NCBI GenBank assembly: GCA_938009905.1
Contig: CALLGK010000021.1
Span: 1 to 62,159 of the forward strand
Reading direction: 5' to 3'
From: an uncultured Acidimicrobiales bacterium
GTDB lineage: Bacteria > Actinomycetota > Acidimicrobiia > Acidimicrobiales > SZUA-35
DNA length: 62,159 bases
Every line of letters starts with the position of its first letter. The stretch's first letter is position 1. Positions 57,307 to 62,159 of the stretch are shown here, piece after piece. Under the pieces are notes generated by a model that was given only the letters and a program-made list of their open reading frames with translations, searched no databases and was not told the origin of the DNA. A program made the translations under genes and the position numbers.

Positions 57307-57447
57307 GAGTCATCTCGGTTCTCGCGGCTCGGGCGATCCGGTGCAAATCCCGCACAGCGAGCGCGAGCCGACTACATTCGCCCACGAACGGGGGTGCTCC
57401 GACTCAGTGTCGGGCCGGAACTCCGTCTTTCTTCAGGAGGAGCAATA

Positions 57448-58005
57448 ATGTCAGACACGCCATCACAGGCCCCAGGCTGGTACTACGCACAGGGCGATCC
57501 GCCCGGCACCCAGCGCTACTGGGACGGCTCGAGCTGGCAGGGTGGACCTCAGCCAGTTGCGGGTGCTGGTGGAGCCGCAGGTGGGGCTGGAGCCATGAAG
57601 GCCGAGAACGGTGACCGTTTCGTTGCGTTCCTCATCGACGTTGGCATCATCATCGCCGCGTACATCGTGATGCTGATTCTGATCGCCATCGCGTCAGCCA
57701 TTAGCGACACGCTCGGAGGCATCTTGAGCCTCATCGCTGGCCTCGCGTATCTCGGCTACTACATCTACAACTACATCTATCTGCAGGGCACGACGGGTCA
57801 GACCATCGGCAAGAAGATGCGCAACATCAAGCTCGTCGACAAGACCACGGGTCAGCCCCTCGGCATGCTCATGGTGTTTGTGCGCGGTCTCGTCAGCGCC
57901 ATCTTCGCCATTCCGTGTTACCTGGACCACTGGTGGATCCTGGTTGATGAGAACAATCAGCGTCTTTCCGACAACGTTCTCGGAAACCACGTCATTCCAG
58001 CCTGA
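57448..58005 (+). CDS. DUF2510 + RDD-family membrane protein (2 of 3)
   Basis: PGWYYAQGDPPGTQRYWDG, RFVAFLID, GQTIGKK, QRLSD; AGGAGG RBS. Confidence 0.85.
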   Translation: MSDTPSQAPGWYYAQGDPPGTQRYWDGSSWQGGPQPVAGAGGAAGGAGAMKAENGDRFVAFLIDVGIIIAAYIVMLILIAIASAISDTLGGILSLIAGLAYLGYYIYNYIYLQGTTGQTIGKKMRNIKLVDKTTGQPLGMLMVFVRGLVSAIFAIPCYLDHWWILVDENNQRLSDNVLGNHVIPA

Positions 58006-58023
58006 TCTACTGAGCTAGCGACT

Positions 58024-58052
58024 CGCCGGCGGGGCACGAGCCCCGCCGGTCG
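58024..58052 (+). terminator. GC-rich hairpin between RDD genes 2 and 3
   Basis: ccggcgggg-cacgag-ccccgccgg. Confidence 0.5.
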
Positions 58053-58087
58053 TGTCGAGATCGTTGTATTCCCACGAGGTATCTGTC

Positions 58088-58660
58088 ATGACAGACATTC
58101 CGTCATCCCAGCCCCCTGGCTGGTACTACGCCCAGGGCGACCCCGTCGGAACACAGCGCTACTGGGATGGGTCGACCTGGCAAGGTGGTCCGCAACCTGT
58201 TGGCGGTGGCTACGGAGCCACGAGCCAGCTCGCAGACGCGGGCAGTCGCATCGGCGCCTGGTTTGTTGACCTGCTTGTCTTGATCATTCCCATCTTCATC
58301 ATTTCGTTTGCGGTGGCTGGCGGTGAGCAGCAGAGCGTGTTCGGTGCTTCGGCGCGACAAATCGTGGCTGGGCTCCTCACCACCGCTGTGTGGTTCGGCT
58401 ACCACGTTTTGATGAACAGCAACGGCGGGCAAACGCTTGGTCGCAGGGCGGTAAGCATCAAGATCGTCAACATGGACGGATCTGAGGCGGGAACCGATTC
58501 GCTCGTAAAGCGATTCGGTGTCGGACTTCTCAACATCATTCCGTTCGTCAACCTGGTGCTCTGGATCGTTGGGTTGGCCTCACTCGTCTTGATCTTCATC
58601 GACGACGACAATCAGGCGCTCTGGGACAAAGTGGCGAACACCAAGACCATCAAGGCGTGA
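58088..58660 (+). CDS. DUF2510 + RDD-family membrane protein (3 of 3)
   Basis: PGWYYAQGDPVGTQRYWDG, RIGAWFVD, GQTLGRR, QALWDK. Confidence 0.85.
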   Translation: MTDIPSSQPPGWYYAQGDPVGTQRYWDGSTWQGGPQPVGGGYGATSQLADAGSRIGAWFVDLLVLIIPIFIISFAVAGGEQQSVFGASARQIVAGLLTTAVWFGYHVLMNSNGGQTLGRRAVSIKIVNMDGSEAGTDSLVKRFGVGLLNIIPFVNLVLWIVGLASLVLIFIDDDNQALWDKVANTKTIKA

Positions 58661-59483: not shown

Positions 59484-60311
59484 TTAGGCCAGACCAAGCA
59501 GCTCAAACATGGCATGCGGCGGGTCGTTGTCGCCGCGTGCGAGGCGTGCCGCTCGCTCAACGTTGACGGCGTCGAAGTGTCGATCCGTCCACGTGTCCCA
59601 CGGGCCGGGCGGCAGCGCGCCCACATCGCCATCAACCTCGACGCACGCTCGTAGGTAGTCGCGCAACGAGGCAAGGTCGCCGGCGCCACCGGGTGGCCCG
59701 TGGCCGGGCACAAACGTGTTGCCGAGCTCGGCGATCTGATCGAGGCTGTCGGCCCATGCGGCGGGGTCGCCGTCGAACGCAAGTGGAGTCGTGCCGAAGG
59801 CACCGAGCGCACCGGTGTAGACAACGCCAGCCTGAGGCACCTGCACGACGAGGTTCATGGGTGACTCACCCGGCAGCGGAACGGCGACGGCGGCCGGTGT
59901 GATCCAGACGTTTTCCGCGATTGTGTGCGTAATCGGACGAGTCTCGAACTCCTCGTGATACGCCTCAGCAAACTCGGGAAGCAGACGGCCGATGGCATCG
60001 AGGTTGAGTGGTGCGTCCAGCTGTCCACTCGTGGCTTCCGAGCCGTAGAACGCGGCTTTCCAGAAGGCCCAGCTTCCACCCGCGAACGGGATGCGGCTTG
60101 ACGTCAGAACCACTCGCTTGATCGGCAACTCGAGCTCGGCCGTCAGCTCGAGGATTTCTCGTCGAGCTCGGTGGGCCACCTCTGGCGTTGGTCCAGCATC
60201 GATCATGGTCAGCCCATCACCGTCGATGACGAGTCCAAGGTTGGAGTGACCAAACCCCTGCTCGGCGCTCGCAAACGCAAACACGCCCTGTCCAAGCTCG
60301 ACCTGATGCAT
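59484..60311 (-). CDS. Metallo-beta-lactamase-fold (cyclase-like) protein with degenerate metal site
   Basis: SNLGLVI, MIDAG, VVLTSSRIPFAGG in place of THxHxDHxxG, FVPGHG retained. Confidence 0.7.
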   Translation of the reverse strand: MHQVELGQGVFAFASAEQGFGHSNLGLVIDGDGLTMIDAGPTPEVAHRARREILELTAELELPIKRVVLTSSRIPFAGGSWAFWKAAFYGSEATSGQLDAPLNLDAIGRLLPEFAEAYHEEFETRPITHTIAENVWITPAAVAVPLPGESPMNLVVQVPQAGVVYTGALGAFGTTPLAFDGDPAAWADSLDQIAELGNTFVPGHGPPGGAGDLASLRDYLRACVEVDGDVGALPPGPWDTWTDRHFDAVNVERAARLARGDNDPPHAMFELLGLA

Positions 60312-60341
60312 CCCCCAAACCTACCGCCCAACCCTTCCCCC

Positions 60342-60389
60342 GATTGGTGTGTTGAGGTGACCAGTTACGGCCGTCTCAGCACACCAATC
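60342..60389. repeat. 48-bp palindromic repeat, copy 1 (upstream of the DUF559 gene)
   Basis: GATTGGTGTGTTGAG-gtgaccagttacggccgt-CTCAGCACACCAATC. Confidence 0.92.
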
Positions 60390-60406
60390 CAGTGAGGGCG
60401 TGGGAA

Positions 60407-60428
60407 TGTCACTAGGCGTGGACATGAT
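60407..60428 (+). promoter_or_regulatory. PafBC/RecA-NDp-like promoter of the DUF559 gene
   Basis: TGTCAC-N10-CATGAT, then ATG 6 nt later. Confidence 0.45.
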
Positions 60429-60434
60429 GTGGGT

Positions 60435-61358
60435 ATGCGAGTAGACGACGCCATGAGCGCCGTACTCGAGCTCGCGGCCTCTCAGTACGGGACGTTCAAC
60501 AGACGACAGGCCGCCGATCGCACATTCTCTGCCCGCCGACTCCGTCGGGCCGAACTCAACGGGCATCTTCTTCGTCCGTTGCCGGATGTGTTTGTGTTAC
60601 CCGGTTCGCCAGACTCCTGGCGACAGCGGTTGATGATCCAGACCTTGCAGGGAGGCGCTGTTGCGAGCCATCGAGCTGCAGCCGCGCTCCACGGGTTCGA
60701 CGGGTTCCGTCCGGGGACAGTCGAGGTATGCGTGCCCCGAAACCTGGAGTCAAACGACCGCAACGCCATCGTGCATGGGTGGCGTCGCTCCGACGAGGCC
60801 GACGTGGTCGTGATCGACGGGATTAGGGCGACCTCCGTCGAGAGGACGCTCGCTCAGCTCGGTGCGGTTGTGGAACGCCGCAAGGTTGAACAAGCCCTCG
60901 ACGGCGCCCTGCGCGACGGGTTGTCTCCCGTCGCGCTCGAGCAAACACTCGAACGGCTTTGGCGACCAGGTCGCACCGGCGTGGGCACCCTGCGTAGGCT
61001 GATCGATGACCCGCGGCGAACGGGGATGCTTCCCGACTCGTGGTTTGAGCGGCTCGTGCAGCATGTGGCGAACGCTGCTGGTCTGCCGCCTGTGGTGTTG
61101 CAACACGAAGTGCGTGTGGCGTCGGGGCGCCGTCGTCTCGACTTGGCGTATCCCGATGTCAAGCTCGGCATCGAAGCGCACTCTCGCCGGTTTCACTTTG
61201 GCCCCACGCGCACAGAGGCCGACAACATTCGCGACCTCGAGCTAGCGGCAATCGGCTGGGAGGTGGTGTACGTAACCTGGGGTATGGCGCACGAGCCAGT
61301 CGAACTCGTCCGTCATCTTCAGGCGATCTACCGCGCCAGATCCCGATTGGTGTCCTGA
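60435..61358 (+). CDS. AbiEi-like N-terminal domain + DUF559/Vsr-like endonuclease domain protein
   Basis: AASQYGTFNRRQA, ASHRAAAALHG, DGIRATSVERTL, SWFER, GLPPVVLQHEV, RLDLAYP..KLGIEAH...H, D..RD..L...GWEV..VTW. Confidence 0.85.
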   Translation: MRVDDAMSAVLELAASQYGTFNRRQAADRTFSARRLRRAELNGHLLRPLPDVFVLPGSPDSWRQRLMIQTLQGGAVASHRAAAALHGFDGFRPGTVEVCVPRNLESNDRNAIVHGWRRSDEADVVVIDGIRATSVERTLAQLGAVVERRKVEQALDGALRDGLSPVALEQTLERLWRPGRTGVGTLRRLIDDPRRTGMLPDSWFERLVQHVANAAGLPPVVLQHEVRVASGRRRLDLAYPDVKLGIEAHSRRFHFGPTRTEADNIRDLELAAIGWEVVYVTWGMAHEPVELVRHLQAIYRARSRLVS

Positions 61359-61392
61359 GGTGACCACTTACGACCGTCTCAGCACACCATTG
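61345..61392. repeat. 48-bp palindromic repeat, copy 2 (contains the gene's stop codon)
   Basis: GATTGGTGTCCTGAG-gtgaccacttacgaccgt-CTCAGCACACCATTG. Confidence 0.9.
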
Positions 61393-61406
61393 CGGTGGGG
61401 TGGGGT

Positions 61407-61454
61407 GATTGGTGTGTTGAGGTGACCAGTTGCGACCGTCTCAGCACACCAATC
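61407..61454. repeat. 48-bp palindromic repeat, copy 3
   Basis: GATTGGTGTGTTGAG-gtgaccagttgcgaccgt-CTCAGCACACCAATC. Confidence 0.92.
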
Positions 61455-61474
61455 CGGTTGAGGAGGGGAGTGAG

Positions 61475-62159
61475 TTAGGGGCGGGTGATGCCCATGGGGG
61501 TGGCGGGGGGCGTGAAGGTCGGGAAGATGTTGCCGATGCCGACACGGTTCGACAGGATCTCGGTGATTGGCTGACGGAAGTCGGTCAGCACCGTGAGGTC
61601 ACCTTCGTCGGGATCATCTTCGATGACGTCTGGGAAGTCGTTGCCGAAGACGCCGCCTTGGATGCCGCCACCCATGGCCATGATCGAGGTTGCTCGACCG
61701 TGGTCGGTACCGCCTGATCCGTTCTCGTTGATGGTGCGACCGAATTCGGTGACCACGAGAATCGTCGTCTCGTTGATCGTGCCGTCTGACGCAAGGTCGT
61801 CGGTGAAGGAGCGAAGTGCGCCAGCAAGCTCTGAGGCCCGTCGCATGAACCGACCTTCAGGGTCACCCGGTGCACCGAGGTCGTCGTGATGGTCCCAGCC
61901 GCCATATTCAATGGCTGCGGCATACAGGCCGAGGCCCGAGCGCAACATGATGGCAACCTGCGCCAGGTCACGAGACAGCTTGTTGTTCGCATACGAGCCA
62001 GGAGCGTCGCCCGGCATGGCTTCGAGCGTGTCGACAACCGACAGCAAGTCGGCACCTGTTGAGGTGACGGCGCCGTTCGGGCTTGAGTACATCGAGGCGA
62101 GTACGCCACGGGCTCGACCGCGGTTGCGGAACCCGTCGATGCCGAAGTTGCGAAGGTCT
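61475..62159 (-). CDS. DUF1501-family protein, 5'-truncated by window edge
   Basis: GGWDHH, VVTEFGRT, ENGSGGTDHG, GGGIQGG, TDFR. Confidence 0.85.
   Translation of the reverse strand, partial: DLRNFGIDGFRNRGRARGVLASMYSSPNGAVTSTGADLLSVVDTLEAMPGDAPGSYANNKLSRDLAQVAIMLRSGLGLYAAAIEYGGWDHHDDLGAPGDPEGRFMRRASELAGALRSFTDDLASDGTINETTILVVTEFGRTINENGSGGTDHGRATSIMAMGGGIQGGVFGNDFPDVIEDDPDEGDLTVLTDFRQPITEILSNRVGIGNIFPTFTPPATPMGITRP

Follow-up and report, generated by a model that had tools for sequence, protein, structure and literature searches.

The window analysed here is a stretch of 62,159 nt of contig CALLGK010000021.1 from the assembly of an uncultured Acidimicrobiales bacterium (GCA_938009905.1). 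On its + strand lies a unit of 1113 bp (60342-61454), in which a gene for a protein with an AbiEi-like DNA-binding module and a Vsr-like nuclease domain is bracketed by three copies of a 48-bp palindrome. Palindrome copy 1 (60342-60389), with 15-nt arms and an 18-nt asymmetric core, lies upstream and is followed by a 45-nt spacer (60390-60434) and by the nuclease gene (60435-61358). Copy 2 (61345-61392) and copy 3 (61407-61454) are separated by a 14-nt spacer and form a direct doublet with a period of 62 nt. The arms are GATTGGTGTGTTGAG / CTCAGCACACCAATC with one G.T pair, and the core has the same orientation in all three copies, which are direct repeats. The open reading frame (ORF) runs from a GTG at 60429 to 61358 (309 aa); the likely start is the ATG at 60435 (307 aa), with which the start of the ortholog in a sister species (genome G004, see below) aligns, 45 nt past copy 1. 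The TGA stop codon (61356-61358) lies inside copy 2, which overlaps the final four codons of the gene as well. A preliminary description of the window had reported one palindrome upstream and two downstream in direct orientation, 45 bp between copy 1 and the gene, a stop codon within copy 2 and no other copy in the window. All of these points were confirmed, the 45 bp being exact if the ATG is the start.

A relaxed arm pattern gave three matches in the window and none in 100 shuffles, and the full 48-mer with up to three mismatches gave two matches and none in shuffles. Beyond the three copies at the nuclease gene, neither scan found the palindrome in the 62-kb window. The degenerate beginning of a further copy was seen past a 14-nt spacer behind copy 1. 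As single-stranded DNA, one palindrome unit had fold z-scores of -4.0 (+ strand) and -4.3 (- strand). A simple scan found neither a sigma-70-like promoter nor a terminator at the palindromes, and no such promoter in the 45-nt spacer ahead of the gene. An Rfam scan (E ≤ 1) of 60200-61600 gave no match, and tblastn against the PLSDB plasmids returned nothing at E ≤ 1e-8. Copy 1 may act as an operator or as an element end.

The genome to which the window belongs (G000) comprises 4.38 Mb in 343 contigs and is 85% complete, and the window gene lies on its contig C21. A genome-wide search with the 48-mer had been suggested in the preliminary description, and iterative nhmmer showed the palindrome to be dispersed, with 41 copies in 25 intergenic clusters on 22 contigs. 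These clusters comprised 16 direct doublets (period 60-63 nt) and 9 singles, the doublet being the commonest form. The copies occupied short intergenic gaps, often 5-20 nt from gene ends according to crude gene calls, and several stood at contig ends. The outer arms ATTGGTG / CACCAAT were invariant across the family, the right arm and core were well conserved, and the symmetry extended into the flanks (CCG before and CGG after the unit). With 41 copies genome-wide, the idea of a repeat private to the nuclease gene was rejected. Dispersal was also considered as a refutation of the preliminary description; this was dropped, as the G004 ortholog and the paralogs are each bracketed by their own repeat family.

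One pair of doublets of the window family surrounds an unrelated gene at C9:4510-5598, which encodes an AAC(3)-family-like acetyltransferase (NCBIfam AAC_3, 210.8 bits with a cut-off of 270). The two doublets are mutually inverted. At one of these sites, common to G000 and G004, the copies match the variant of the respective species, a hint of concerted evolution or of re-insertion.

Five relatives of the nuclease, in four lineages, are encoded in G000: the window gene on C21 and genes on C48 (50% identity), C126, C89 and C27. A k-mer census of the genome showed at least six families resembling repetitive extragenic palindromes (REPs). By nhmmer, the GATTGGTG family of the window had 41 copies in 25 clusters, GAACTGGCAC had 43 copies in 21 clusters, TGCGTGCAC had 76 in 34 and TTCTGGAGG had 113 in 92. 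All five nuclease genes were flanked solely by their own palindrome family, with one copy upstream and two downstream at C21, two upstream and four downstream at both C48 and C27, one upstream at C126 (where the contig ends downstream) and two downstream at C89 (where the contig ends upstream). The chance that a cluster of a given family falls within 400 bp of a given point was 0.4-1.7%, and of random 930-bp segments, 0.046% had a high-copy repeat of any kind near each end. Flanking by its own palindrome family, which the preliminary description had singled out as a check, was therefore found for 5/5 paralogs in G000 (four lineages) and for most homologs elsewhere. The copies at C126:1-913 and C89:1-912 are 95.4% identical and stand in mirror orientation at contig ends, which points to a recent duplication of that gene-bearing unit, or to variation between strains, as the cause of the break in the assembly. 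The C27 paralog (C27:5372-6193) has an internal TAG and matches the profile at positions 38-309 only, and may be a pseudogene.

RAYTs, the partners of REP and REPIN repeats, are REP-associated tyrosine transposases of Proteobacteria. The only Y1/RAYT-like (PF01797) gene in G000 lies at C44:3858-4811 and encodes 317 aa (PF01797, 46 bits; NCBIfam REP_Tyr_transpos, 58.9 bits with a cut-off of 80). It was flanked, in inverted orientation, by a different repeat family of its own (GGGGTCAGGTACAAAACGTTACGC type). K-mer counts put this family at about 28 copies, and the figure is theirs because nhmmer, started from one 24-nt seed, gave no match for it. This locus is an internal positive control, in that looking for a gene flanked by its own repeats finds a known kind of system. 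A classical REP-RAYT pair therefore coexists with the nuclease-palindrome pairs in G000.

A conserved 21-mer of the window palindrome was not found in 40 relatives. This negative is misleading: the inner arms are different in the G004 variant, and a generic outer-arm pattern finds G004. Among 41 genomes, GATTGGTG..CACCAATC palindromes occurred only in G000 (25 sites) and G004 (18 sites), with one unrelated chance match to the outer-arm pattern in G001. With mismatches allowed, at least 33 copies of the variant were present in G004. The inner arms of this variant are GAG..CTC, compared with TGC..GCA in G000, so that both sides have changed in a compensatory manner. G004 was also the one relative with a close ortholog of the window gene (69% identity). 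The C48-type palindrome, GAAyTGGCAC..GTGCCArTTC, occurred among the 41 genomes only in G000 (19 sites) and G002 (11 sites), and G002 was the only relative with a C48-type ortholog (78% identity). The C48-type gene was not found in G004 and its palindrome had 0 sites there, the window-type gene was not found in G002 and the GATTGGTG family had 0 sites there, and G001 and G003 showed neither gene type and 0 sites of either family apart from the chance match in G001; these five genomes are 76-91% complete and the set of 41 includes incomplete ones (66-100%), so that not found does not equal absent. Each of the two families thus occurred only with the matching nuclease lineage, in 2/41 genomes each, which is a double dissociation. 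Judging by comparisons of the MBL gene (see below) and of 20 kb of DNA, G002 seems no farther from G000 than G004. No single shared ancestry can account for both patterns of co-occurrence.

The nuclease gene is flanked by two minus-strand genes, one with a metallo-beta-lactamase fold (MBL) and the other a DUF1501 gene. The G004 ortholog occupies the same slot, beside the MBL gene and the DUF1501 end, and is bracketed by two copies of the G004 variant on either side. Empty sites in relatives, which the preliminary description had proposed to look for, were present in the congeners G001 and G003, where DUF1501 directly adjoins MBL across spacers of 195 bp and 44 bp that hold no gene, and the locus was rearranged in G002. 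Only about 30 nt and about 20 nt of native spacer are left outside the outer palindromes in G000, and the inserted unit is therefore bounded by the palindromes. The spacer at the G001 empty site (L022 1300-1494) holds a different 48-bp palindrome (GTTCTGGAG...CTCCAGAAC type), apparently nested within another with TTCTGGAGATCC / GGATCTCCAGAA arms. Between species, this slot is occupied by different palindrome families.

For the dispersed copies, four G004 repeat sites had both flanks mapping to one G000 contig. One of the four (at C9) was shared with G000, two lacked the family in G000 and one was indeterminate. Of the two sites without the family, one has a 13-nt remnant and the other holds a palindrome of another family. 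The family has therefore turned over since the species split, and the gene locus has stayed bracketed. The remnant, at C139:1177-1220 opposite a G004 doublet, resembles the right end of the palindrome (CTCAACCAATCGG) and could be a deletion footprint.

The layout was also found in other genera. In a first search, homologs from other genera had a word of at least 13 nt common to both flanks in 7/9 evaluable loci. For named loci of Acidimicrobiales and Ilumatobacteraceae (39 loci, 38 evaluable), shared words of at least 13 nt and at least 15 nt were present in 22/38 and 15/38 respectively, or in 20 and 14 of 36 after removal of two loci identical to others. Twenty distant loci of the phylum, from 10 coded families, gave 12/20 and 9/20. 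The corresponding values for control genes were 24/1256 (1.9%) and 6/1256, the controls being ORFs of 230-430 aa taken from G000 alone with a crude ORF filter, and the six with a word of at least 15 nt including the window gene itself. At a word length of at least 13 nt, Fisher tests against these controls gave p = 6e-25 for the named and 4e-15 for the distant loci, and at a length of at least 15 nt 2e-20 and 3e-14 respectively, with related genomes entering as non-independent samples. The layout was uniform, with an upstream palindrome of 40-55 nt ending mostly 28-56 nt ahead of the start of the protein alignment, and in other lineages a downstream copy of it starting anywhere from 38 nt before the stop codon to 25 nt past it; in many of these lineages the stop codon is inside that copy or no more than 25 nt away. 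A related CC(G)GAAyTG motif opens many of the arms. In a maximum-likelihood tree of 44 proteins, from which 8 short proteins and 2 duplicates had been excluded, the clades tracked the palindrome-arm types; co-variation of protein and repeat trees was among the checks proposed in the preliminary description. This co-divergence shows a long companionship with maintained symmetry; linked DNA co-diverges too, and recognition is not thereby proven.

The flanking palindromes were dispersed and genome-specific in 5/7 other genomes (G004, G002, G041, G121 and G098). The nuclease family was found in 63/150 other sampled genomes of the phylum (E ≤ 1e-12), or 57/144 without six unpublished genomes that enter this tally only (G190, G164, G112, G046, G063 and G093), with up to 15 copies per genome. 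Homologs are named 'very-short-patch-repair endonuclease' or 'AbiEi antitoxin domain protein' by their sources. Four genomes of one coded genus (family f55, genus g97; G113, G155, G181 and G194) carry 12-15 nuclease copies each, several with internal stops, which suggests bursts and decay as with insertion sequences.

Overall, the association of gene and palindrome is strongly supported, and the unit is best read as a REP/RAYT-like system whose enzyme is a non-HUH nuclease. The preliminary description had proposed such a system, and paralog specificity, co-occurrence and fold support it. Of the computational outcomes that it had named as damaging, homologs without flanking palindromes and a lack of enrichment near the nuclease genes, neither was observed. 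A coincidence, in which an ordinary REP-like family that is mobilised otherwise happens to flank the gene or shares its ancestry, is very improbable and is close to refuted by the counts. It draws on the fact that only 3/41 copies lie at the window gene and that unrelated genes are bracketed too, namely the AAC(3)-like gene on C9, an acyl-CoA dehydrogenase gene on C4, a RIO-type kinase gene on C284 and a lipoprotein-like gene in G004. It would leave unexplained five paralogs each with its own family, shared flank words in 22/38 and 12/20 homolog loci compared with 1.9% of controls, and the double dissociation across congeners.

The identity of the protein was less evident from domain searches than from its fold. 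Pfam returned AbiEi_4 with 23.6 bits (cut-off 25) and the MTES_1575 nuclease with 19.4 bits (cut-off 38.2), both sub-threshold. PF04480 (DUF559) was not matched in this search, NCBIfam gave no match, and a sequence search of the PDB with the single protein gave chance matches only. In precomputed annotation, distant homologs carry PF04480 and PF18741. An AlphaFold2 model built on 59 sequences had a pLDDT of 93.9 and a pTM of 0.88. Foldseek matched the first ~200 residues (60435-61034), an AbiEi-like two-domain DNA-binding module with a winged helix and a second domain, to the whole AbiEi antitoxin 6y8q (E 2.7e-6, template-modelling (TM) score by target 0.62-0.68, ~196 columns) and also to Rv2827c (1zel). 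The C-terminal ~105 residues (61035-61355) were assigned by Foldseek and profile matches to a Vsr-like (DUF559 / EDxHD-type) nuclease domain. For this domain the best structural match was 3r3p, the catalytic domain of I-Bth0305I (TM score by target 0.78, root-mean-square deviation 3.0, 99 columns), followed by Vsr itself (1cw0, 1vsr). In a profile search the family reached 3r3p (E 0.008) and the DUF559-like 3hrl (E 0.014). The label AbiEi/DUF559 given in the preliminary description thus stood as far as the fold is concerned and did not stand on Pfam; fold evidence was needed for it because the Pfam matches were weak and PF04480 was unmatched. A homodimer prediction for the protein scored 0.17 against a mark of 0.42.

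The candidate catalytic residues, numbered from the GTG at 60429, are D238 (61140-61142), E249 (61173-61175), H251 (61179-61181), H256 (61194-61196) and D265 (61221-61223), all on the + strand. In the 59 sequences D238 and D265 were invariant and E249 and H256 were conserved in at least 90%, and H251 and S252 were invariant in 15 close homologs. According to PMC3239194, Vsr D51/H64/H69/D97 correspond to I-Bth0305I D196/N208/H213/D222. Read through these equivalences, the alignment to 3r3p places H251 at Vsr H64, H256 at H69 and D265 at D97, and D238 would correspond to Vsr D51 by its spacing rather than by alignment. The preliminary description had taken the EAHS found in place of ExDG as a reason to doubt activity. 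This doubt was not upheld: because H251 aligns with Vsr H64 / I-Bth0305I N208, EAHS is the Vsr-type form and not a degenerate one, and the protein probably keeps an intact catalytic set.

An orphan antitoxin of the AbiEi kind, from a type IV toxin-antitoxin or abortive infection system, would also agree with the AbiEi-like fold of residues 1-200 and with the names that sources give to homologs; the palindromes would then be its promoter operators. However, AbiEii (PF08843) was found neither beside the nuclease gene, where the preliminary description had seen none either and the neighbours are MBL and DUF1501, nor elsewhere in the genome, which is 85% complete. With a nuclease at its C-terminus the protein is more than an antitoxin, and the palindromes lie downstream and genome-wide as well. 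This explanation can hardly be held. The protein is like AbiEi (6y8q, Rv2827c) in its whole two-domain fold over the first ~200 residues, and AbiEi binds inverted repeats in its promoter cooperatively and autoregulates (PMC7319586), whereas the unit differs from AbiE in that no AbiEii partner was found, in its C-terminal nuclease fusion and in having repeats on both sides of the gene and genome-wide.

The autoregulation of AbiEi through promoter inverted repeats (PMC7319586) lends some weight to a second explanation, in which a sequence-specific binder has been domesticated and the palindromes serve as its operators, autoregulatory upstream of the gene, or as chromosomal sites, for example for nucleoid organisation or transcript ends. 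They would be kept by selection and not be spread by the nuclease. The fairly constant distance from upstream palindrome to start (mostly 28-56 nt) would agree with this, as would the orthologous doublets at C9, which match each species' variant as though kept fitted to the protein. However, a regulator has no need of an intact, conserved nuclease site, palindromes also lie at the stop codon and in tandem doublets, and sister-species copies lie at non-orthologous sites. The orientation of copies relative to neighbouring genes showed no clear bias (about 7 versus 6 by crude gene calls), and many copies have uncompensated arm changes. A purely regulatory role is decidedly unlikely.

The catalytic domain points to a third explanation, since its best structural match, 3r3p, is a homing endonuclease (PMC3239194). 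Here a homing-type selfish gene would cut pre-existing palindromes and be copied into their clusters by repair, with the flanking repeats as homology, and the palindromes themselves would be spread by another agent, such as a RAYT or host processes. The gene does stand within an apparent repeat cluster, with the degenerate start of a further copy after the 14-nt spacer behind copy 1, the C126/C89 duplicate shows that such a gene can multiply, and different families re-use intergenic sites. Against it, 0/41 genomes had either palindrome family without the matching gene, which is unexpected if the palindromes are independent, and in G042 and G043 the gene is flanked by palindromes but has no dispersed family as a homing target. 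A lineage mostly has the gene once, in synteny across species, and the sole RAYT-like gene has a different family of its own. Homing into independent palindromes is thus unlikely.

The REP/RAYT-like reading was compared with known systems, drawing partly on PMC3116915, PMC3337134 and bioRxiv 10.1101/2022.05.22.493013. The unit is like REP-RAYT systems in having a mostly single-copy gene flanked by cognate extragenic palindromes (1+2 here, the five paralogs and the G004 ortholog), palindromes that number tens to hundreds and lie scattered in intergenic DNA (here 41 in 25 clusters), several gene/repeat pairs of separate specificity in one genome, vertical inheritance with synteny between species, and a repeat family that is not found where the gene is not found (two families, 41 genomes). 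It is unlike them in its enzyme, an AbiEi-like binder with a Vsr-like PD-(D/E)XK-type nuclease instead of an HUH/Y1 transposase (PF01797), in its Actinomycetota host with only two flanking copies in some genomes, and probably in recognising a duplex. The doublets are direct tandems of whole palindromes, unlike REPINs, which are inverted REP pairs. The catalytic fold (TM score 0.78 to 3r3p) and the residues at Vsr H64, H69 and D97 (PMC3239194) are shared with Vsr and I-Bth0305I (EDxHD). However, the target would be a long palindrome and not a T:G mismatch or an intron-less allele, and unlike an EDxHD homing endonuclease the gene is free-standing and intergenic, outside any intron or intein, and without NUMOD motifs. 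Miniature inverted-repeat transposable elements and their parent insertion sequences (IS), and IS200/IS605 with its subterminal hairpins, offer a further parallel, as a compact unit of ~1.1 kb with structured ends is outnumbered by short non-autonomous derivatives and both filled and empty sites occur between species. Unlike IS, the unit has no transposase of a known IS family, and its ends are complete palindromes and not half-site terminal inverted repeats. The unit is neither an AbiE toxin-antitoxin pair, nor an intron or intein homing endonuclease, nor a recognisable insertion sequence.

On this basis the unit probably belongs to a widespread Actinomycetota class in which an AbiEi-like/Vsr-like nuclease gene is bracketed by a lineage-specific palindrome of ~48 nt, the nuclease binding, cutting and mobilising the palindromes. 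We infer binding, cleavage and nuclease-driven spread as follows. The AbiEi-like module would bind both arms of the cognate duplex palindrome, as AbiEi binds inverted repeats, and a nick or cut at the palindrome or close to it would follow, made by the Vsr-like domain. Recognition of a duplex is favoured over that of a single-stranded hairpin by analogy, because the N-terminal module is AbiEi-like and AbiEi binds promoter inverted repeats (PMC7319586). The nuclease activity would mobilise or copy the palindromes and originally may have done so for the gene-bearing unit too, and the doublets would be non-autonomous derivatives reduced to the two ends. Autoregulation, as an operator, is probably a second role of the upstream copy. 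A wider claim is put forward tentatively, namely that these units could form a new class of mobile DNA in Actinomycetota, consisting of autonomous units of ~1.1 kb whose sole protein, the AbiEi-like/Vsr-like nuclease, mobilises its own terminal palindromes of ~48 nt and their non-autonomous doublet derivatives.

Several observations weigh against this interpretation. The inner left arm varies without compensation in the G000 family, with pair 12/37 being C-A in 16/41 copies, pair 13/36 C-C in 8 and pair 9/40 G-A in 8; many copies are therefore imperfect hairpins, and either full pairing is not needed for recognition or many copies are decaying. Target-site duplications were not visible in three filled/empty or shared-site alignments, in which the flanks are only ~70-80% identical, and the core orientation relative to the gene is inverted between G004 and G000. 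The C126/C89 gene is present in two copies, unlike typical single-copy RAYTs, and the C27 family is the second largest in G000 (76 copies) despite the internal TAG of its gene. Only the two gene-flanking copies were found in G042 and G043 (2/7 genomes), and proliferation is therefore not obligatory. The sub-threshold Pfam matches, the crude single-genome controls and the relatedness of the sampled genomes count on the same side. Finally, an excision joint was not seen in the public data, which were three DNA runs of one study, as contigs only, with no RNA data set listed. In these runs a 'skip 1019' joint was considered as a sign of excision and rejected, as its 16 other letters match the doublet spacer of another locus, on C271.

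Elsewhere in the window, two adjoining + strand ORFs of 203 and 202 aa (57394-58660) have the motif GWYYAQGDP.GTQRYWDGS.WQGGPQP in common at the N-terminus, with hydrophobic segments behind it, and look like membrane proteins encoded by tandem paralogs.

In full-text searches of the literature, with subscription journals and supplements outside their scope, no link of DUF559/Vsr-like or AbiEi-like proteins with dispersed palindromic repeats was found. Outside the RAYT paradigm, the origin and spread of REP-like repeats is unexplained in most bacterial phyla. The present finding gives a concrete, testable role to a common, uncharacterised actinobacterial protein architecture, whose genes are probably mis-annotated as repair or antitoxin genes. 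The palindromes of such units break metagenome assemblies, and several copies here stand at contig ends. In addition, the lineages provide natural pairs of a protein and a ~48-bp site, one per lineage, for studying the co-evolution of specificity, and the Vsr-type nuclease is a candidate source of a new mobilisation chemistry. If the wider claim of a new class of mobile DNA is true, the REP/RAYT lifestyle would have been invented a second time by an independent mechanism, without an HUH, DDE, serine or tyrosine recombinase.

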